NCBI GenBank assembly: GCA_964534415.1
Contig: CAZHOL010000004.1
Span: 1 to 45,116 of the forward strand
Source of the DNA: an uncultured Candidatus Saccharibacteria bacterium
GTDB taxonomy: Bacteria; Patescibacteriota; Minisyncoccia; Phycocordibacterales; JAACPR01
DNA length: 45,116 nucleotides
Direction of reading: 5' to 3'
A program made the position numbers and the translations under genes. This document shows positions 19,027-27,326 of this stretch, in pieces. The stretch's first letter is position 1; every line of letters starts with the position of its first letter. The notes under the pieces are model-generated. The model searched no databases. It was not told the DNA's origin and saw only the letters and a list, made by a program, of their open reading frames with translations.

Positions 19027-19275
19027 TCACTTCCCCCTAACCAAATTCATTTTCTCCTCTCGCGTCATTCTTTTCAATTCGGCCTCTTTCGCGCGAGCAT
19101 CGGCGTAATTTTCACATTCGCAATTCCAAACCATTGTGACTGGTCGGCGAATTTTGGTGTAATGCGCGCCGGATTTAGCGTGATTGTGTTGATGAAGTCT
19201 TTTTTCCAAATCATTCGTCGATCCAACATAGAAAGTCTCATCGGCGCAAAGCAGAATGTAGGCAAAGTACTTCAT
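19027..19275 (-). CDS. GIY-YIG nuclease family protein (small stand-alone type)
   Basis: FAYILLCADETFYVGSTNDLEKRLHQHN is a GIY-YIG core. 82 aa. Confidence 0.85.
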   Translation of the reverse strand: MKYFAYILLCADETFYVGSTNDLEKRLHQHNHAKSGAHYTKIRRPVTMVWNCECENYADARAKEAELKRMTREEKMNLVRGK

Positions 19276-19929: not shown

Positions 19930-20018
19930 ACAAATGCCTTCGGGCCCGCTCATCGCACGGTGCAATGAGAGAAAAAGGAAAGCCGTCAAATCATATTTTT
20001 GATGGCTTTTCTAATTTT
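19930..20018 (+). ncRNA. Candidate small RNA (~85-90 nt), convergent with and overlapping the 3' end of mazF
   Basis: Bounded by the promoter at 19896-19923 and the terminator at 19981-20018. Contains a GCC-UUCG-GGC hairpin (19936-19945) and a CTCAT...ATGAG hairpin (19949-19969). Confidence 0.35.
19981..20018. terminator. Bidirectional intrinsic terminator containing the mazF stop codon
   Basis: AGCCGTCAAA-tcatatt-TTTGATGGCT, a 10-bp stem with one G-T pair, followed by TTTCTAATTTT on plus and TTCCTTTTT on minus. Confidence 0.65.
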
Positions 20019-20366
20019 ATTGAATATGTCTATATCTAATATTTCCACCCTTCCCAAAAAGCGCTTAGTATCAATTAATCGAATTTGCGAAATGATTGCA
20101 CTCGCGGGTTTTCCATCAACCATTCCGACTTGTATGTAATATGGATTCACTTTTGTAGAAGTTGTAAGCGGAACCACTAAACAAACCTGTCTGCTAAAAC
20201 CACGGAGAATTAAAACTGGCCTTTCGTGATTCTTACCTTTTCCATCTTCTTCAAATCCGATATTTACACCCAACCGACACCACCAAATTTCTCTGATTTT
20301 ATAGAAAACATTTATGCCGCTGTTAATGTCTTTCTTCGCAACATTCCATTCATCAAATTTTTTCAT
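19986..20366 (-). CDS. PemK/MazF-family toxin (endoribonuclease-like), no adjacent antitoxin ORF
   Basis: WWCRLGVNIGFEEDGKGKNHERPVLIL, CLVVPLTTS, SAIISQIRLIDTKR match the PemK/MazF fold. Start set at MKKFDEW, with TATAAT 6 nt upstream. Confidence 0.78.
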   Translation of the reverse strand: MKKFDEWNVAKKDINSGINVFYKIREIWWCRLGVNIGFEEDGKGKNHERPVLILRGFSRQVCLVVPLTTSTKVNPYYIQVGMVDGKPASAIISQIRLIDTKRFLGRVEILDIDIFNKIRKAIKNMI

Positions 20367-20529
20367 CTGTGCATTATATATGAAGCAGATAAAATCCTGA
20401 TAAAGATTCAAATTGCAACACATTGTTTGACGACCTACTCGTTTTCTGACAATATAACAATAGAAACCGAGCCCACCGATTTGCGCCGCAAATCCGCTCG
20501 AGTTCCTTCACTCAAAACTGAGGCCAGAT

Positions 20530-22295: not shown

Positions 22296-22386
22296 GTTCT
22301 TGATGAAGTTTTAGGTGGTTTTAATGAATATATCTATTTAAGTATTATTTAGATATCGTTTCTAAAATTTGTAGCGATCCAATATT

Positions 22387-22821
22387 CTAAAGATAATGTA
22401 ATGAATAATATAATAATGGAAATTCCAATAGCCAAGAGTATCCTGTTATAAAATAAATTAAATCTTTCGGCATAGTTCGGGTGTCATTTAGGGAAAGTCT
22501 TCCTCCATAACGAATCTCCCAAATTAAATCTGGAATTCTCATTATCATCATGACTATTGCTACTGCCATTACACCAATATTCCAATATCTATACAAGATA
22601 ATTAGAAAAAGCAAATTCAAAATTAACGCAAATATATTGATGAAAATATCAGTGCGCTTATTTTTAATAATCTCCCCTTTAACAAATTCACTGCCAGTTT
22701 TTTCTAAATCACTAATCGCTGTATCAGTAAAAAATCCTCTAACTAAAAATCCAATTAGATTTATACTTATATACAACATGGCGAAAAAATATATGGCTAT
22801 TATTACTATATTAACTAACAT
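22387..22821 (-). CDS. Small 4-TM membrane protein, unknown function
   Basis: 144 aa with four hydrophobic helices. Lies 27 nt downstream of the DUF262/HNH gene. Confidence 0.5.
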   Translation of the reverse strand: MLVNIVIIAIYFFAMLYISINLIGFLVRGFFTDTAISDLEKTGSEFVKGEIIKNKRTDIFINIFALILNLLFLIILYRYWNIGVMAVAIVMMIMRIPDLIWEIRYGGRLSLNDTRTMPKDLIYFITGYSWLLEFPLLYYSLHYL

Positions 22822-22848
22822 AATTTTTATTACTTTATAACCATTATA

Positions 22849-23952
22849 CTACACGCCCGACTTTCTCCTATTACACTCTTTGCAAAGCATTTGGCAATTT
22901 TCTGCAATACTACGTCCTCCGTCGTGCCAAGGATCAATATGATCCGCCTCCATTTCTGCAATAGTAAATTCTTTTTTACATTTTGGACAAATACCTTCCT
23001 GCTTTTCAAATGCCTCGCGCTTCATATTTGGAGTGAACGCGCGTATAGACAAATATCTTTCTTGCCGAGTTAAGACATACGGATAAATACCAGATTTCTT
23101 TGTGACATCTTCGTCTTGCATCAATTGCTTAATTTCTTTTTCTAATTTTTCCGAGCTTAGTTTTTTATCTTTAAATTCATTGTAAAGTTCGCCCCAATTC
23201 ACACTCGACATTTCTTTTCGATAATTTGGGAATACATTTCTAACCCAATGAATAACATCCTGAAAATATTTCCATAATTTCTCGGCATTTTTGTCGTGCT
23301 GGTGTTTCGCCATGTACTCCTCTATTTTCTCATTATTAATCCAAGACAAAGCAGTTTCCAAGTATTCCTGTCGAATTGGTGATCCTGTTAATAACTGCCC
23401 GCCGTCATTAGCCAAAAGATATGCCGCACAATTCGATTTACTAAATTTTAATTTAGCATCAGATAACCATGGGCCAGTATAAACCGCATTTCTTAATTCT
23501 TGATCAGTTAATTTTTCTCCCGCAATGTTAATAATTTTAAACCAATCAAGTTTCTCCTTATCATTTCCCTCACAAAAATAAATCATCAACTCATAATTTT
23601 TTATTTGATCCTGTTCCTCTTTCGTTAAATTATGAAACATTGCAATTCTTCCATTGAATTCAATTGAGAAATCACCATTTACGAATTGAGCGAGACTAAT
23701 AGTTCTTTGTTGACCGTCTAGCACCTCAAAATTTCCATCTTCTTTTTTCACCCAGTACATAACGTTTAGAGGAAAACCATTCTTTACAGTTCTAATTACT
23801 TCATCACGCTGTTTCCCACTATAAACGAATTCTCGCTGATATTTCGGACGAATATCTAATTTCCCGCCAAATGCAGATACACCTTCTTCGGCGCTGTCTT
23901 TGTAATCTTTTAAAACTTCGGACACTTTTATTTTGTGCAGGTCAATTTTCAT
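22849..23952 (-). CDS. DUF262 (ParB/GmrSD N-terminal-like) plus C-terminal HNH nuclease
   Basis: LDGQQRTIS (the DGQQR motif of DUF262). C-terminal CPKCKK...EADHIDPWHDGGRSIAENCQMLCKECNRRKSG (HNH with CxxC pairs). Confidence 0.85.
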   Translation of the reverse strand: MKIDLHKIKVSEVLKDYKDSAEEGVSAFGGKLDIRPKYQREFVYSGKQRDEVIRTVKNGFPLNVMYWVKKEDGNFEVLDGQQRTISLAQFVNGDFSIEFNGRIAMFHNLTKEEQDQIKNYELMIYFCEGNDKEKLDWFKIINIAGEKLTDQELRNAVYTGPWLSDAKLKFSKSNCAAYLLANDGGQLLTGSPIRQEYLETALSWINNEKIEEYMAKHQHDKNAEKLWKYFQDVIHWVRNVFPNYRKEMSSVNWGELYNEFKDKKLSSEKLEKEIKQLMQDEDVTKKSGIYPYVLTRQERYLSIRAFTPNMKREAFEKQEGICPKCKKEFTIAEMEADHIDPWHDGGRSIAENCQMLCKECNRRKSGV

Positions 23953-23953
23953 T

Positions 23954-25117
23954 TTATTTTGTGTTCAATGCCTCTGGTATAAACTTCTCTTCGATTAGCA
24001 CCTTAACCAGACTTCTGAGCAGGAAGTTTTCAGAAAAAGTAATTGAGTACGCTCGGCTTTTCTCATCTCCGATTGTTTTAATCATTTTAATATCTTTTAA
24101 CTTTTTTATCATTCTTGATCTCTTAATATTAGAATCCATGTTCTCTAGAATTGATAAATCACCAGCAGAGATAATCATATCCTCTTTTTTGATTATGACA
24201 GATAATGCGTCAAAAATATTTTTATCAATGTATTTCTTTTCCAACGCATCGCTCAAGACTTTCTTAAATAAGTCTGAAACATATTCCACATTACTAATTC
24301 TATCAATTTTACCTATTTCTTCTTTGAGTCCAGACAAAACGTAAGTACACCATTTGTTTGTGTCTCCATTATCTGCCTCTGAGAGCATTTGATAGTAGAT
24401 ATTTCTGTCATTACAGAATATCGCTGTTGGGTTCAATATATTACCCTTTTTAATATTGAAGCCGTATTTAATAAGCATCAAAAAAGTTAAGAGTCTAACA
24501 ACTCTTCCGTTACCATTATCGAATGGATGTATTACTGTAAAATAGTGGTGTGCGACAGCGACTCTCAATAAATGATTCTCCTTATCATCTGCTTCATTTA
24601 TAAATTTGTACAAACTCTCCATAAAATCATGGACTTGAAGATGATCTGGTGTTTTTATAATCGCACGAGAAATACTGACATTTTCTTTTCGATAATCACC
24701 CACAACTTTTGCACCTTCTCTATTTAGCCCATCCACCACGATTTTGTGAATCTCTAGCAATAAACCTTTATCTATTACCTTATCGTCAGTCATGAATTCA
24801 TTTATGAAACTGATCGCTTTGTTGATATTTAATATCTCTGCGAGACTTTCGTCCTTTTTTGGATTGGCGTCTTCAATAATCTTCTCAACAAATTCAGAAA
24901 TGGTTGTATGGTTTCCCTCGATTCGGGCAGAACCTATACTTTCAAGAAATTGAAAAACATTTTTAATTTCAAAAAACACGTGGGGTGGTGTAGTGCCACG
25001 TAATTCTCTCTTTCTTAATGCTTCGAGGTCGATGATTATATTTGCAAGCTCACTACCCCACTCTGGTTTGGGTACTTTTAAATCTATTTGTGATATATCT
25101 CTGAGTGTTTTTGACAT
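23954..25117 (-). CDS. Fic family protein (putative AMPylase) with an N-terminal inhibitory motif and a C-terminal wHTH-like tail
   Basis: Fic motif HPFDNGNGRVVR. SARIEGN matches the (S/T)xxxE(G/N) inhibitory helix. 387 aa. Confidence 0.9.
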   Translation of the reverse strand: MSKTLRDISQIDLKVPKPEWGSELANIIIDLEALRKRELRGTTPPHVFFEIKNVFQFLESIGSARIEGNHTTISEFVEKIIEDANPKKDESLAEILNINKAISFINEFMTDDKVIDKGLLLEIHKIVVDGLNREGAKVVGDYRKENVSISRAIIKTPDHLQVHDFMESLYKFINEADDKENHLLRVAVAHHYFTVIHPFDNGNGRVVRLLTFLMLIKYGFNIKKGNILNPTAIFCNDRNIYYQMLSEADNGDTNKWCTYVLSGLKEEIGKIDRISNVEYVSDLFKKVLSDALEKKYIDKNIFDALSVIIKKEDMIISAGDLSILENMDSNIKRSRMIKKLKDIKMIKTIGDEKSRAYSITFSENFLLRSLVKVLIEEKFIPEALNTK

Positions 25118-25255
25118 GTATCAATGCTACAACAAATAGCCTTTAAATACAAGATATTATTCTATAATAACTATATAATCATGTATCATTTTTCAAAACA
25201 ACAAATATCATTCTTTACGAGAAAATTAATACCTGCTATCCGATCCCGCCTCCAA

Positions 25256-26362
25256 TTATTTCTGTAGTTTTTTGCTTTTAATCAAGATACGAGTAAAAAG
25301 AGCCTTACCCAGCAATACTGGCCCAACATATTTCTTATGCTGCTCATCAACATATGTCGGCACTCCTTGTATAAAGGCGTCATCATTTTCCCTCTTATCA
25401 TCATATATTCCCAAAATTTCAAATTGATCTGGATTATATTTATCAAGAAAAGTTATAGGAACACCCATAATACCAGCATAGTCTTGCGGTATCTGGGTAA
25501 TTTTTGAAACCTCAATAGCGTTGTAATTATCGTATTTAATGTAATCTTTTGCCAAATATTTTTTATAAAAAATTAGCGGTTCGTGACGTTTTGAGATGTC
25601 GAGATTCGTAAACCAACAAGTATTGCCCATTTTTGCATATTTTTTACCATCTTCACCAATAATAATATTCTTTTGGTCATAGTTATCTGGGACTTGATAA
25701 GATTTGGCTCCATTATTATAACCAAGCCAGCATTTATTATTTTTTATTAATTTAAAGATAAAATTATATTTAATTGCATTTAAGCTACCGATAATTAGAA
25801 ACTTCTTATCATATTCTACTAACTGAGACACATATTCTCTAAACAAAGAAAACGGAGGATTTGTAACAACAATGTCAGCTTGTTTCAACAATTCAATACT
25901 TTCAGGACTTCTGAAATCTCCATCGCCTTCCATTGGCGACCATTCATTATTTTTATTAGCTTTCAACTGTTCTGCAATATCTCTCAAATCAAATGCGCCA
26001 TCTTTATCCAAATCTTTAACTTCATTAATAATAAATTTATTTGCGTTCATCTTTGGTCTTCCTTTTGTTTGTTTCAAAGTTTTATCATTTCCGAAAAGAC
26101 CGAGCTGTGTGTTAGCAATCGGAGATGGTTTGTAACTTGTTGCAATCAAACGTTTTAAACCAAGTGCATTAAAATTTGATGCGAAATATTTGAAAAAGTT
26201 GCTTTCGAAAGGGTCGTCGCAATTACAATAGACGACCTTGCCCTTAAACTGCTCTTTGTAATGCTTCATTTCCTTCTCAATATCAATTAACTGAGTATAG
26301 AACTCGTCTTTTTTGGCTTTATTGGCTTTATGTAGATTACTGTTCTTATTTTTCTCCGCCAT
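25256..26362 (-). CDS. N6-adenine DNA methyltransferase, EcoRI-methylase-like family
   Basis: KKDEFYTQ, VVYCNCDDP, VVTNPPFSLF (NPPF catalytic motif). Start set at MAEKNKN; the tracked upstream extension crosses a terminator hairpin. Confidence 0.83.
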   Translation of the reverse strand: MAEKNKNSNLHKANKAKKDEFYTQLIDIEKEMKHYKEQFKGKVVYCNCDDPFESNFFKYFASNFNALGLKRLIATSYKPSPIANTQLGLFGNDKTLKQTKGRPKMNANKFIINEVKDLDKDGAFDLRDIAEQLKANKNNEWSPMEGDGDFRSPESIELLKQADIVVTNPPFSLFREYVSQLVEYDKKFLIIGSLNAIKYNFIFKLIKNNKCWLGYNNGAKSYQVPDNYDQKNIIIGEDGKKYAKMGNTCWFTNLDISKRHEPLIFYKKYLAKDYIKYDNYNAIEVSKITQIPQDYAGIMGVPITFLDKYNPDQFEILGIYDDKRENDDAFIQGVPTYVDEQHKKYVGPVLLGKALFTRILIKSKKLQK

Positions 26363-26412
26363 ATAATTATCTTCAAGATACCACAAATATTGAAAAATTT
26401 GAAGGGTAGAAT

Positions 26413-26447
26413 ATAAAAGCGAACAGGACATACGAAATGTCCTGTTC
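26413..26447 (-). terminator. Intrinsic terminator downstream of the GC-rich segment and upstream of the methyltransferase
   Basis: GAACAGGACAT-ttcgt-ATGTCCTGTTC, a perfect 11-bp stem, followed by GCTTTTAT on the minus strand. Confidence 0.7.
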
Positions 26448-26557
26448 AGGTCTAGTGAAAATATTATATCACCTCTACTACACACGGCAAACCAGCAACA
26501 ACCTTAACCATAATCCACCATAGTTAAACTTCCCGCAGTAACTTTAACTATAAAAAC

Positions 26558-26836
26558 CTAAAACCCCCTCTCCTCCCCCCCCTCCTTCATCACCACAAAC
26601 TCTATCCCATGCCGCGCGAGCACTGTTTCGGGAGCTTTGTGGACGGCACCGATGCGGTCGGGTTGCAACATTCCGTCGTGAATTGGGAAAGCTTTCTGTG
26701 GATGAAGAAGAATTGCGTAACGAATCGCGTCGGCAATGCGACACCATGGGCCAGAGACAGGCAAAGCCAGGATCGGACCCATAAGAAAAGCCCGGGGTGT
26801 CGTTCCCGGGCTCAGACGCGATGTCCAAAGATTCAA
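26558..26836 (-). pseudogene. Remnant of an MBL-fold metallo-hydrolase gene (about the C-terminal 75-90 aa only)
   Basis: ILALPVSGPW...AILLHPQKAFPIHDGML...GIEFVVMKEGGE resembles the C-terminal end of UlaG-type MBL-fold hydrolases. There is no HxHxDH region upstream. Visibly GC-rich. Confidence 0.5.
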
Positions 26837-26854
26837 TTTTTTCGCGAGCTCTGG

Positions 26855-27148
26855 CTATTGAGCCCGCGCCAAACGATTGACGTAGACGCTCACATTTAAT
26901 GCGTTGAACGCAGCGAGAGCATCTTTGACTGCATTGGTAGCTGGATCCAATCTCTCCTGCATATCCCAATTGATGTGAATGACCTGACAAGGTTCACGAG
27001 TTTCTGAATCGAGGCATACACTTTCAACAACCCCAACTGCGGCGCGAATCTGATTTTGCTCAATCAACCTCGCGATCTCATTCTGAACGGCTCCTGCAAT
27101 ATTCGAATCGAAACCATACAATTGTATATGGAAAGATGACGTTTTCAT
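26855..27148 (-). CDS. Hypothetical 97-aa protein (GC-rich cassette G)
   Basis: ATG at 27148 preceded by GAAGGG 5 nt upstream. Extended -10 promoter at 27202-27210. No family recognised. Confidence 0.45.
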   Translation of the reverse strand: MKTSSFHIQLYGFDSNIAGAVQNEIARLIEQNQIRAAVGVVESVCLDSETREPCQVIHINWDMQERLDPATNAVKDALAAFNALNVSVYVNRLARAQ

Positions 27149-27201
27149 TCTTACCCTTCTTGTTTGATGTGATGGTATGTGGTGAACAAAGCTAGTCACA
27201 G

Positions 27202-27228
27202 ACTATAGCAAAATCACTCGACAGTCAA
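27202..27228 (-). promoter_or_regulatory. Promoter of cassette G (TTGACT-15-TGcTATAGT)
   Basis: Minus strand reads TTGACTgtcgagtgatttTGcTATAGT. Confidence 0.45.
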
Positions 27229-27255
27229 TTAGCCTTCATTAACCAAAAAATTTTG

Positions 27256-27326
27256 TTGCCCGACAGGGACTCGAACCCCAATTAACGGTTCCAGAAACCG
27301 TCGTCCTACCTTTAGACGATCGGGCA
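27256..27326 (-). tRNA. tRNA-Gln (anticodon CTG)
   Basis: Manual cloverleaf: acceptor TGCCCGA/TCGGGCA, anticodon arm ACGGT-TTCTGGA-ACCGT, T arm GGGG-TTCGAGT-CCCT. No encoded CCA. Confidence 0.92.

Follow-up and report, generated by a model that had tools for sequence, protein, structure and literature searches.

A putative Type II-like restriction–modification locus with an embedded Fic module in a Patescibacteria genome

The reading we favour for this locus, with a probability of about 0.72, is a Type II-like restriction–modification (RM) system made of a methylase (M) and a nuclease (R), in which an autoregulated Fic module is embedded, with the 4-TM protein gene next to it as an unrelated neighbour. 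It is a variant of the known embedding of genes in defence systems and not a new kind of system. An earlier sequence-only reading of the same DNA had proposed a defence locus, and this holds. Its three ORFs (Fic, R and membrane protein) were also right, but it took Fic for the first gene and missed M, which lies one gene further upstream. The genes are given below with their positions in the window, which is the whole 45,116-nt stretch of DNA that was analysed.

26362..25256, minus strand: M, an EcoRI-family N6-adenine DNA methyltransferase, 368 aa from ATG 26362, with an NPPF motif
25117..23954, minus strand: Fic ORF, 387 aa, embedded cargo
23952..22849, minus strand: R (DUF262/HNH) ORF, 367 aa, predicted restriction endonuclease
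22821..22387, minus strand: membrane ORF, 144 aa, with 3-4 hydrophobic segments

On recheck, the three ORFs and both junctions were exactly as reported before: a single base lies between the Fic stop codon (23956-23954) and the ATG of R (23952), and the spacer from R to the membrane ORF is 27 nt. Fic, R and the membrane ORF are real genes, each with homologues, which number more than 8000 for R and more than 3700 for Fic, and 3 only for the membrane protein. M sits 138 nt upstream of Fic on the same strand; its mechanical ORF begins at GTG 26485, and the 368 aa are counted from ATG 26362. The GC content is 0.28-0.36 over 22296-26560 and 0.44-0.49 in the flanks. The domain calls made earlier for Fic and DUF262/HNH were upheld by Pfam, which matched the Fic protein to Fic (E 5.5e-16) and R to GmrSD_N (2.3e-18) and HNH (1.1e-12).

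M matched Pfam PF13651 with an E-value of 1.3e-137 and the PADLOC profile MTase_II with an E-value of 2.2e-122. Of 80 related species-level loci of Patescibacteria, 77 had an M homologue as the same-strand gene just before R, and every locus with enough upstream DNA had M except L042, where no methylase was found in the 882 nt of upstream DNA available. The M-R pair with the same junction was also present on plasmids of Bacillota, Actinomycetota, Pseudomonadota and Bacteroidota, with 47-60% identity. The constant partner of the DUF262/HNH nuclease is the methylase M, whose gene is adjacent to and conserved with the nuclease gene. Judged from their sequences, M and R form a widespread two-gene Type II-like RM system, in which the "Type II" label refers to the gene organisation and to one PADLOC profile whose pedigree is unknown. 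As in classical Type II RM (M.EcoRI family, PF13651; PADLOC RM type II), M and the nuclease are separate proteins of one co-directional operon, their pairing is near-obligate across hundreds of genomes and plasmids, the His-Me (HNH) active site of R is intact, and R expression appears tied to the upstream ORF. Unlike in classical Type II RM, R has an N-terminal ParB/Srx-like DUF262 with DGQQR, a domain whose other known carriers are NTP-stimulated Type IV enzymes.

R is built of this DUF262 domain, a helical middle and a C-terminal zinc-ribbon HNH domain with the motif CxxC...DH...N...CxxC. Residues D79, G80, R83 and N352 are invariant in the R family, and Q81, Q82, H338 and the zinc cysteines are near-invariant. 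Along with these intact catalytic motifs, R has the profile of a restriction-enzyme family, as PADLOC REase_II (PDLC03418) matched residues 1-365 of 367 with an E-value of 1.2e-132. The AF2 model of R had a pLDDT of 92, and its domains resemble ParB/Noc, BrxU and the Gme HNH nuclease; the PDB matches were domain-level only. In the literature and the PDB we found no characterised member, biochemistry, recognition sequence or solved structure of the R family, and NCBI labels the relatives of R merely as "DUF262 domain-containing protein".

The sequence-only reading had likened R to GmrSD, BrxU and SspE. R does join an N-terminal DUF262 (ParB/Srx, DGQQR) to a C-terminal His-Me finger nuclease as these enzymes do, and BrxU was a structural match, so the DUF262/DGQQR part of that claim stands. 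A GmrSD-like or stand-alone nuclease does not fit with the M partner, the REase_II profile and the PF01844 HNH domain. R is shorter, at about 370 aa compared with about 580 or more in GmrSD, BrxU and SspE, and its C-terminus is a PF01844/PF14279 HNH with a zinc ribbon in place of DUF1524, to which R gave no match in Pfam. R also differs from these enzymes, which act without a cognate protective methylase, in its near-obligate pairing with M. One could still take R for a modification-dependent nuclease of the GmrSD/BrxU kind, with an unrelated or orphan methylase beside it, and DGQQR in DUF262, BrxU among the fold matches and the weak PADLOC matches to NsnA, PD-T4-2_A and mREase_IV point in this direction. 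We regard this as highly improbable: near-obligate adjacency on one strand and translational coupling to one methylase family are kept in Patescibacteria and on plasmids of other phyla, the C-terminal nuclease is not DUF1524, and REase_II was the best PADLOC match by about 100 orders of magnitude. That R is always paired with a methylase implies restriction of unmodified, not modified, DNA. In GmrSD, BrxU and SspE, DUF262 has NTPase activity, so R may depart from textbook Type II behaviour. A "DUF262 domain-containing protein" that is very common can be reclassified here as the nuclease of a widespread mobile RM family. This nuclease combines a ParB-like NTPase fold with HNH; Patescibacteria hold thousands of copies, and plasmids of staphylococcal relatives, Aeromonas, Variovorax, actinomycetes and lactobacilli hold more.

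The DNA between M and R was found to be variable. In 37/77 pairs R follows M directly across a stop-1 nt-ATG junction, and in 35/77 an insert of more than 150 bp lies between the two, with the ORFs counted as cargo all on the same strand, which means that about 45% of the sampled loci have the slot occupied. The cargo included RhuM, T5orf172, Bro-N, AAA_15/21 ATPase, trypsin-like protease, DUF2130 and unannotated small TM proteins, and cargo other than Fic matched the PADLOC embedded-candidate families PDC-S05, PDC-S57 and PDC-S23. In most cargo-bearing loci the cargo ATG is 1-4 nt past the M stop, and the stop-1 nt-ATG junction precedes R in 67 of 81 related loci examined, irrespective of the upstream gene, M included. 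Nested in the core operon, with the same orientation and variable among homologous loci (35/77), the cargo has the features of embedded accessory genes. The M-R junction is a recurrent insertion slot and Fic is one such cargo, present in the slot in 1 of the 80 REase loci. Translational coupling of Fic to R had been taken earlier as a sign of a functional pair, but the junction is generic (67/81) and Fic is rare in front of it, so this argument could not be kept.

Genes embedded in defence operons have been documented, for example BrxU in BREX and, in Type I RM, the Rlo genes and PrrC; Payne et al. (2024, bioRxiv 10.1101/2024.01.29.577857) surveyed Hma, BREX, DISARM and Type I RM for guilt-by-embedding candidates. 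The locus is like these cases in having a same-strand accessory gene nested between modification and restriction genes, and its cargo families (Fic/PDC-S04, RhuM/PDC-S05, T5orf172/PDC-S57, PDC-S23 and ABC-type ATPases) are the embedding-derived ones of PADLOC. It differs from the surveyed embeddings in having a Type II-like RM of two genes as its host, and in the use of a single junction, where the insert is in most loci tightly coupled in translation to both neighbours. The sequence-only reading knew of no such combination among described defence systems; a PADLOC profile search matched MTase_II, REase_II, SoFic and PDC-S04, which cover the components, and the embedding itself is already described. 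Guilt-by-embedding, documented for Type I RM, BREX, DISARM and Hma, thereby extends to a minimal two-gene RM, and the M-R junction, filled in nearly half of the sampled loci, offers a compact place to look for new defence genes of the candidate phyla radiation.

The order M-Fic-R was found in four instances with different genomic contexts (the window, L035, L081/L082 and L083), and the order M-R-Fic in one (L110). Conservation of the Fic-R adjacency had been expected of a real module, and the adjacency does recur beyond this genome, but it is rare (1/80 REase loci). Nucleotide homology of the window to L035 or L081 is limited to 26338..22856, and the three have three different flanking contexts; the M-Fic-R unit is a mobile, horizontally acquired low-GC cassette. 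Elsewhere, a close Fic relative precedes HsdR with the same 1-nt junction in L084, and in L089 and L092 such a close relative precedes HsdR via an ORF of 61-62 aa, all three lying between hsdS and hsdR. L085, L086 and L090 hold members of this Fic subfamily, again with the promoter and boxes described below, and no RM genes nearby. Among metagenome loci of the wider Fic family, restriction subunits (HsdR) made up 4/59 downstream neighbours, so embedding is an exception for this wider family. In L081/L082 an in-frame TAA is present at codon 114 of R, and Fic and M are intact.

These neighbourhoods bear on whether Fic guards R in the manner of PrrC, that is, whether it stays silent as long as R is intact and active, and AMPylates a host target once a phage anti-restriction factor disables R. 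PrrC/EcoprrI gives a precedent, close Fic relatives directly precede the restriction subunit in two RM types that are unrelated (DUF262/HNH and HsdR), and the HsdR share of 4/59 is far above that of a random gene. Such a guard is nonetheless unlikely in our judgement, as the subfamily keeps its promoter and boxes where RM is not nearby (also in most of the 59 metagenome loci), Fic stays intact beside the interrupted R of L081/L082, HsdR and the DUF262/HNH protein have no common domain as a docking surface, Fic follows R in L110, and about 34 other M-R loci have unrelated cargo in the slot.

The Fic protein has the active-site motif HPFDNGNGRVVR, with His, GNG and both Arg present. Position 5 of the motif is Asn and not Asp/Glu as in the canonical HxFx(D/E)GNGRxxR; this Asn is invariant in the Fic subfamily and common to CccR, which is reported active. 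The N-terminal inhibitory helix SARIEGN (S63-A-R-I-E67-G68-N69) has the (S/T)xxxE(G/N) form of class II Fic proteins, with S63, E67 and G68 invariant in the subfamily, as are the catalytic His and both Arg. A winged-helix DNA-binding domain is located at the C-terminus, and the homology to CccR (PDB 7XUX_A, E 1.2e-79) is full-length including this HTH, as residues 10-382 aligned onto 6-379 of 380. The protein is probably an AMP-transferase under autoinhibition.

CccR of Yersinia pseudotuberculosis represses its own gene by binding to boxes of the ATGATAATCT type and AMPylates FtsZ, and its regulatory and toxic activities are separable; it is reported to be a T6SS-secreted interbacterial toxin, adjoins T6SS effector genes and is not described as a defence protein (PMC9755527). 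The window Fic shares with CccR the class II type, the SARIEG helix, the Asn at motif position 5, the C-terminal HTH and ATGATA-type repeated boxes around its own promoter. Unlike CccR, it is found in a Patescibacteria genome inside an RM operon, and no T6SS genes were evident in the 45-kb window. SoFic, a single-gene anti-phage system (Millman et al. 2022; EcSofic/AS1, PMC12249575), is also a class II Fic with an extra C-terminal domain and typically lies, like the Fic here, in defence islands. The PADLOC SoFic profile matched most of its length (E 5.5e-47, positions 53-349 of 361) and PDC-S04 matched with an E-value of 5.6e-20, whereas the NCBIfam SoFic equivalog NF046030 gave 65 bits, far under its 550-bit cut-off, and similarity to SoFic structures was only remote (E about 4e-10). 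A small AS1-like ORF as in EcSofic/AS1 is absent downstream of the window Fic, because R starts 1 nt past the Fic stop.

The DNA between M and Fic contains the following features.

25118..25255, minus strand: Fic regulatory region, with its own putative promoter and repeated TGATAYATC boxes
25210-25202, minus strand: box 1, TGATATTTG, degenerate in the window
25188-25180, minus strand: box 2, TGATACATG, a TGATAYATC box
25152-25147 and 25129-25124, minus strand: putative Fic promoter, -35 TTGTAT and -10 TAGCAT with a 17-nt spacer
25123-25115, minus strand: box 3, TGATACATG, over the Fic start codon

The promoter calls, this one and the one upstream of M given below, are consensus matches from a scan that yielded no more sites than shuffled sequence. 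The Fic transcript is probably leaderless. An alignment showed that the layout of the region is kept in L035, L081, L083, L084 and L085, which makes six loci with the window. TGATAYATS had 3 matches in the 45-kb window, all inside 25091-25188, and the box starts are 22 and 65 nt apart. The footprinted operator boxes of CccR are AGATAATCAT-N26-ATGATAATCT (PMC9755527), and the repeated candidate operator boxes at the Fic promoter appear to resemble ATGATAATCT. CccR has inverted 10-mers with 26 bp between them, while the TGATAYATC boxes start 22-23 nt apart with a third over the start codon. Ahead of close Fic relatives the boxes and promoter are conserved within this RM family, inside a Type I RM operon and at one site where RM genes are absent. 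In a more distant subfamily of Fic the layout is kept but the boxes differ and read ATGTTAAAT, and such subfamily-specific boxes are expected if Fic's own DNA-binding domain reads them.

This arrangement would also suit a mainly regulatory Fic, whose winged helix acts like a C protein and delays or caps R after entry into a new host, with the Fic domain as a switch modulator or as an addiction toxin that stabilises the cassette. Fic stands where a C gene classically does (just ahead of R, in the same direction and coupled to it), the repeated boxes at its own putative promoter include one at the start site, and CccR is experimentally an autorepressor with separable activities. But the position is empty in about half of the M-R pairs, the other cargo is for the most part not obviously regulatory (protease, ATPase, T5orf172 and TM proteins), stand-alone Fic copies have the same regulatory region, and the invariant catalytic His, both Arg and inhibitory helix argue for selection on enzymatic activity. 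We therefore give such a controller little chance.

We infer instead, for the favoured RM locus with an embedded Fic module, a restriction activity with its specificity, a Fic enzymatic activity with its target, autorepression and an anti-phage role, which would work together as follows. M would mark the host DNA, and R would cut unmarked incoming DNA. R would be translated only in the wake of the upstream ORF via the stop-1 nt-ATG junction, this ORF being M in the basic form. The slot here holds a self-contained Fic module, in which a class II Fic with a winged helix comes with a putative promoter and three TGATAYAT boxes. By analogy with CccR, Fic probably represses its own promoter through the boxes, and the same repression probably also sets R expression because R follows without a gap. 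Fic released during infection would modify a host protein and lead to cell arrest, a SoFic-like second layer behind restriction, and embedding would keep both layers co-expressed and co-transferred. A bolder extension, which we mention tentatively and think rather unlikely, is that the M-R junction is a dedicated plug-in site for swapping diverse second-line defence genes with the coupling kept on both sides, and that the Fic version is wired into restriction twice, its winged helix controlling R expression as a surrogate controller protein and its AMP-transferase serving as a PrrC-like backup when restriction is blocked. CccR-type Fic proteins, described as secreted toxins, appear here as autonomous, self-regulated modules that repeatedly land before restriction subunits, so a role in immunity and cross-regulation with restriction is straightforward to test.

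The membrane ORF, for which 3-4 TM segments were predicted, is located inside the same low-GC block (GC 0.28), but the homology of the window to L035/L081 stops at 22856, before this ORF, and no homologue of the membrane protein was found in the 80 REase loci or at any Fic locus examined. Its 3 known homologues occur as tandem pairs; L094, the sole longer contig with one, has SmpB and FtsH as neighbours and no RM or Fic genes near it. The membrane gene lies beside the conserved cassette as an unrelated neighbour and is not the module member that it was first taken for. A dedicated new three-gene defence system of Fic, DUF262/HNH and 4-TM protein (an AMPylating effector or regulator, a nuclease sensor and a membrane effector), as the sequence-only reading had it, is consistent with the co-directional, tightly spaced genes in one low-GC block and with the Fic-R adjacency in four contexts. 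With the 4-TM gene missing from all these loci, Fic in 1/80 REase loci, the methylase as the constant partner of the nuclease and a generic junction, we think that such a system has almost no probability.

Three further features lie upstream of M.

26420..26448, minus strand: hairpin with a 12-bp stem and then a T-run, between the promoter-like site and the M ATG
26463..26490, minus strand: promoter-like site TTGCCG-16-TG-TATAAT upstream of M, from the consensus scan with 10/12 matches
27255..27326, minus strand: tRNA-Gln(CTG), about 0.7-0.9 kb past the upstream edge of the low-GC island

The promoter-like site is a candidate for the operon promoter, and the hairpin may serve either to end transcription coming from upstream or as a regulatory element. 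The tRNA gene is a possible landmark for integration.

Comparison of ORF coordinates and domain matches bore out the three ORFs, both gaps and the domain calls of the sequence-only reading, which had proposed a defence module of a Fic protein, a DUF262/HNH nuclease (R) and a four-transmembrane (4-TM) protein: the Fic stop codon and the ATG of R are separated by 1 base, and the spacer 5' of the 144-aa ORF has 27 bases. But these three ORFs were not the complete unit, because an EcoRI-family methyltransferase gene (M), located 138 nt upstream of Fic on the same strand, had been overlooked. The genes are as follows:

26362..25256, minus strand: EcoRI-family N6-adenine methyltransferase (M), 368 aa; PF13651, E 1.3e-137; PADLOC MTase_II, 2.2e-122
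25117..23954, minus strand: Fic protein, 387 aa; Fic domain, E 5.5e-16
23952..22849, minus strand: DUF262+HNH protein (R), 367 aa; GmrSD_N, 2.3e-18; HNH, 1.1e-12
22821..22387, minus strand: hydrophobic membrane protein, 144 aa; ORF

In 77 of 80 species-level R loci, a homologue of the window M lay directly upstream of R and on its strand. Of the other three loci, two were cut by a contig end and one (L042) had no visible methylase in the 882 nt available. Plasmids of Macrococcoides, Aeromonas, Variovorax, Gordonia, Dietzia, Ligilactobacillus and others also carried M-R pairs with the 1-nt junction (47-60% identity), with the R copies annotated merely as "DUF262 domain-containing protein"; Macrococcoides canis pMiCAN82a and Aeromonas caviae NZ_CP068231 are examples. 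PADLOC analysis showed that R matched the Type II restriction-enzyme profile PDLC03418 from end to end (residues 1-365, E 1.2e-132), whereas GmrSD-related profiles matched its N-terminal domain only and were about 100 orders of magnitude weaker. R had been likened to Type IV nucleases (GmrSD, BrxU, SspE), but the upstream M and the full-length Type II match contradict that classification. On these comparisons we conclude that M and R form a predicted classical two-gene restriction-modification (RM) module with an unusual nuclease architecture, and that R is not a stand-alone Type IV enzyme.

The R family gave more than 8000 matches at E <1e-10 and 487 cluster representatives (50% identity) at E <1e-30; the best 120 matches all had 78-89% identity and were spread across many Patescibacteria lineages. 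At least 300 loci of the family lie in GTDB species representatives, and thousands in metagenomes. Residues D79, G80, R83 and N352 were invariant, and Q81, Q82, H338 and the zinc cysteines were near-invariant. An AF2 model from 65 diverse homologues reached a pLDDT of 92 (an earlier one from 30 close homologues, with a pLDDT of 56, was unusable), and it predicted three parts: a ParB/Srx-like domain at the N-terminus, whose fold matched Noc/ParB, BrxU and sulfiredoxin best, then a helical stretch, and lastly a zinc-ribbon HNH domain, for which the matches were the Gme HNH nuclease and McrA. The fold search found no full-length structural relative in the PDB (domain-level matches were weak, all E >1e-3), and a profile search of PDB sequences recovered the HNH domain alone. 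Palindrome counts over 1.07 Mb of genomes with the system showed a generic mild avoidance of GGCC, ACGT, GATC and TCGA, which is not diagnostic of the recognition site, and the GAATTC ratio of 0.80 was not diagnostic either. Our literature search found no characterised DUF262+HNH enzyme partnered with an EcoRI-family methylase. In one 688-aa protein (P0259), the whole DUF262/HNH region made up the C-terminal half (residues 317-685), which could reflect either fusion to the gene upstream or an error of gene calling.

The M-R junction turned out to be a slot for other genes. M and R abut in 37 of the 77 pairs (M stop, one base, R ATG), and more than 150 bp lie between them in 35. The intervening same-strand ORFs (cargo) belong to many unrelated families, including RhuM (PF13310), T5orf172, Bro-N/DinD-like proteins, an AAA_15/AAA_21 ATPase, a trypsin-like protease, DUF2130, DUF4145 and various unannotated proteins, several of them with N-terminal membrane segments. 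In PADLOC the cargo matched PDC-S05 (6 proteins), PDC-S57 (6) and PDC-S23 (4). Payne et al. (bioRxiv 10.1101/2024.01.29.577857) selected the PDC models as "phage defence candidates" for their embedding in Type I RM, BREX, DISARM or Hma loci. A stop codon and one base preceded the R start codon in 67 of 81 related loci, whatever the upstream gene, and likewise in the window; the cargo ATG followed 1-4 nt past the M stop in most cargo-bearing loci. Thus, the stop-1 nt-ATG junction is a built-in property of the R gene, which in the basic system couples R to M, and the translational coupling is no evidence of a Fic-nuclease partnership, for which it had been taken. Within L001-L080 (the fetched R loci), aaaaaTAAnATG preceded R even where the cargo ORF ended earlier. 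The edges of the inserts, the 5' edge included, showed no conserved recombination site; cargo could be exchanged through homologous recombination within the conserved 3' end of M and 5' end of R.

The window Fic showed full-length homology to the Yersinia Fic-HTH protein CccR (PDB 7XUX; residues 10-382, E 1.2e-79). CccR is reported to be a class II Fic protein that has SARIEG as its inhibitory helix, HPFGNGNGRTVR as its Fic motif and a C-terminal HTH domain, to AMPylate FtsZ, and to repress its own promoter by binding AGATAATCAT-N26-ATGATAATCT (PMC9755527). The window Fic has SARIEGN and HPFDNGNGRVVR as the corresponding motifs, and the Asn at the canonical Asp/Glu position of the Fic motif was invariant in the subfamily. 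It matched PADLOC SoFic and PDC-S04 but failed the NCBIfam SoFic equivalog (65 bits against a cut-off of 550). SoFic-type proteins are reported single-gene anti-phage systems, with toxic AMPylation thought to be the mode. No AS1-like small antitoxin ORF followed Fic in the window.

Unlike other cargo, Fic follows an AT-rich spacer 100-139 nt long. Alignment of the spacer from six loci (the window, L035, L081, L083, the Type I locus L084 and the RM-free locus L085) showed a kept layout: two (A)TGATAYATC boxes 22-23 nt apart, a promoter TTGnTT-17-TAnnAT, and a third box TTGATAYATG over the start codon. In the window these are located at:

25210-25202, minus strand: box 1 (degenerate), Fic spacer
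25188-25180, minus strand: box 2, Fic spacer
25152-25147, minus strand: -35 of the predicted Fic promoter
25129-25124, minus strand: -10 of the predicted Fic promoter
25123-25115, minus strand: box 3, over the Fic start codon

TGATAYATS had three matches in the 45-kb window, all within 25091-25188. A more distant Fic subfamily (L086, L089, L090, L092) had two to three ATGTTAAAT-type boxes, partly degenerate (e.g. ATGATAAAT), instead of TGATAYATC, within about 110 nt upstream of the Fic ATG and arranged alike, with boxes ahead of the promoter and shortly before the start codon. Operator and DNA-binding domain of Fic would thus seem to co-vary, and subfamily-specific boxes in a common layout are expected if Fic's own DNA-binding domain reads them. 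By analogy with CccR, we infer that Fic would be an autonomous, autorepressed module; expression of R in the window is probably also subject to the Fic promoter, because R follows Fic without a gap or terminator. Our main reading, to which we give a probability of about 0.7, is a Type II-like RM system in which a self-regulated, CccR/SoFic-like Fic module is embedded. This module would act as an independent second layer, or at least be a hitch-hiking toxin-like gene, and would be expressed and transferred together with restriction. Fic might also be a C-protein-like controller, with which the place of its gene, the boxes at its own promoter and the autorepression known from CccR would agree, but no such gene is present in half of the M-R pairs, and the catalytic residues do not vary.

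The Fic-nuclease adjacency recurred in L035, L081/L082 and L083, but Fic occupied the slot in one of the 80 R loci (L035, Fic 79% identity) and its relatives also occurred without RM genes. The gene order was M-Fic-R in L081/L082, with an in-frame TAA at codon 114 of R, M-DUF4145-Fic-R in L083, and HsdS-ORF-Fic-HsdR in L084, where the junction was 1 nt too; L085 had a close Fic relative with no RM genes nearby. Relatives at about 48% identity lay between hsdS and hsdR (L089, L092) or were isolated (L086, L090). A metagenome locus (L110:2460-6155) had the order M-R-Fic, with Fic about 380 nt downstream of R and 47% identical to the window Fic, so that the two families are associated here independently and in another order; metagenome Fic relatives were found with an alignment query, whereas a single-sequence query gave no match. 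For distant family members, HsdR was 4 of 59 downstream neighbours, and most were housekeeping genes. These mixed contexts (RM, isolated, housekeeping) therefore mean that this Fic type is a free-standing gene, which enters RM operons far above chance, usually ahead of the restriction gene, and is not bound to them.

The repeated position of Fic ahead of two unrelated restriction subunits would suit a guard like PrrC in Type I RM. Stand-alone Fic copies with an identical regulatory region, one genome with R knocked out and Fic intact, and the lack of a shared domain between DUF262/HNH and HsdR argue against such a guard. Nucleotide homology between the window and L035 or L081 spanned 26338 to 22856, which is exactly M, Fic and R and nothing more, and the flanks of the three loci were three different contexts, which argues that M-Fic-R moves as a unit.

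Second to L035, the L081/L082 locus is the nearest M-Fic-R relative of the window locus, and its R stop at codon 114 (…LTKEE*NQIL…; L081:6166-7269, L082:2495-3598) occurs with intact M and Fic; the two records were identical over the R region and may be a single genome. Between Fic and hsdR of two Type I loci, a 61-62 aa zinc-ribbon ORF was present (L089:6198-6386, L092:6199-6384), for which the Lar family of restriction-alleviation proteins gave a weak, sub-threshold match (E 6e-4). A role as antitoxin-like or anti-restriction-like Fic partner is conceivable for this ORF, and the window has no equivalent.

A search of 5.8 billion sequences detected only three homologues of the 144-aa membrane protein, at 32-48% identity, which marks its gene as real but rare. 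The homologues formed tandem pairs of genes of about 141-145 aa (L094:93-1011, L095:95-985), whereas the window has a single gene. In L094, the one longer contig, the pair adjoined smpB and ftsH, and neither RM nor Fic genes lay near it; no homologue was present in the 80 R loci, where the genes downstream of R were essentially all different. The 4-TM protein was thus rejected as an effector, having no linkage to the cassette, and dropped out as a member of a defence module; its gene lies in a low-GC block shared with the cassette and could have arrived with it, but nothing ties the two functionally. These comparative data contradict the idea of a previously undescribed three-gene system. Current defence databases include a model for each component, and accessory genes nested in defence operons have been described before. 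In the literature searched, three points seem undescribed: that a very common DUF262+HNH protein serves as the nuclease in a widespread RM family, that a two-gene RM system with a single tightly coupled junction has varied cargo in about 45% of loci, and that CccR-type Fic genes with a conserved operator/promoter unit recurrently lie ahead of restriction genes.

GC content was 0.28-0.36 across 22296-26560 and 0.44-0.49 in the flanks, and the edge of the low-GC block lay about 0.7 kb from a tRNA-Gln gene. The stretch from M to tRNA-Gln (26363-27254) had no ORF with a Pfam match, and its distal part (26561-27254) was GC-rich (0.49). Upstream of the M ATG, a promoter-like site (26490-26463) was followed by a hairpin with a 12-bp stem and a T-run (26448-26420). 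The stretch could be a disrupted-gene remnant or an island border. A MazF/PemK-type toxin (19986-20423, minus strand, E 2e-11) and a small GIY-YIG protein (19027-19275, minus strand, E 1e-15) are encoded 2-3 kb beyond the cassette, with NUDIX, ASCH and P-loop kinase-like genes separating them from it. The NUDIX protein matched PADLOC PDC-S07, and a small defence or mobile island may lie here.
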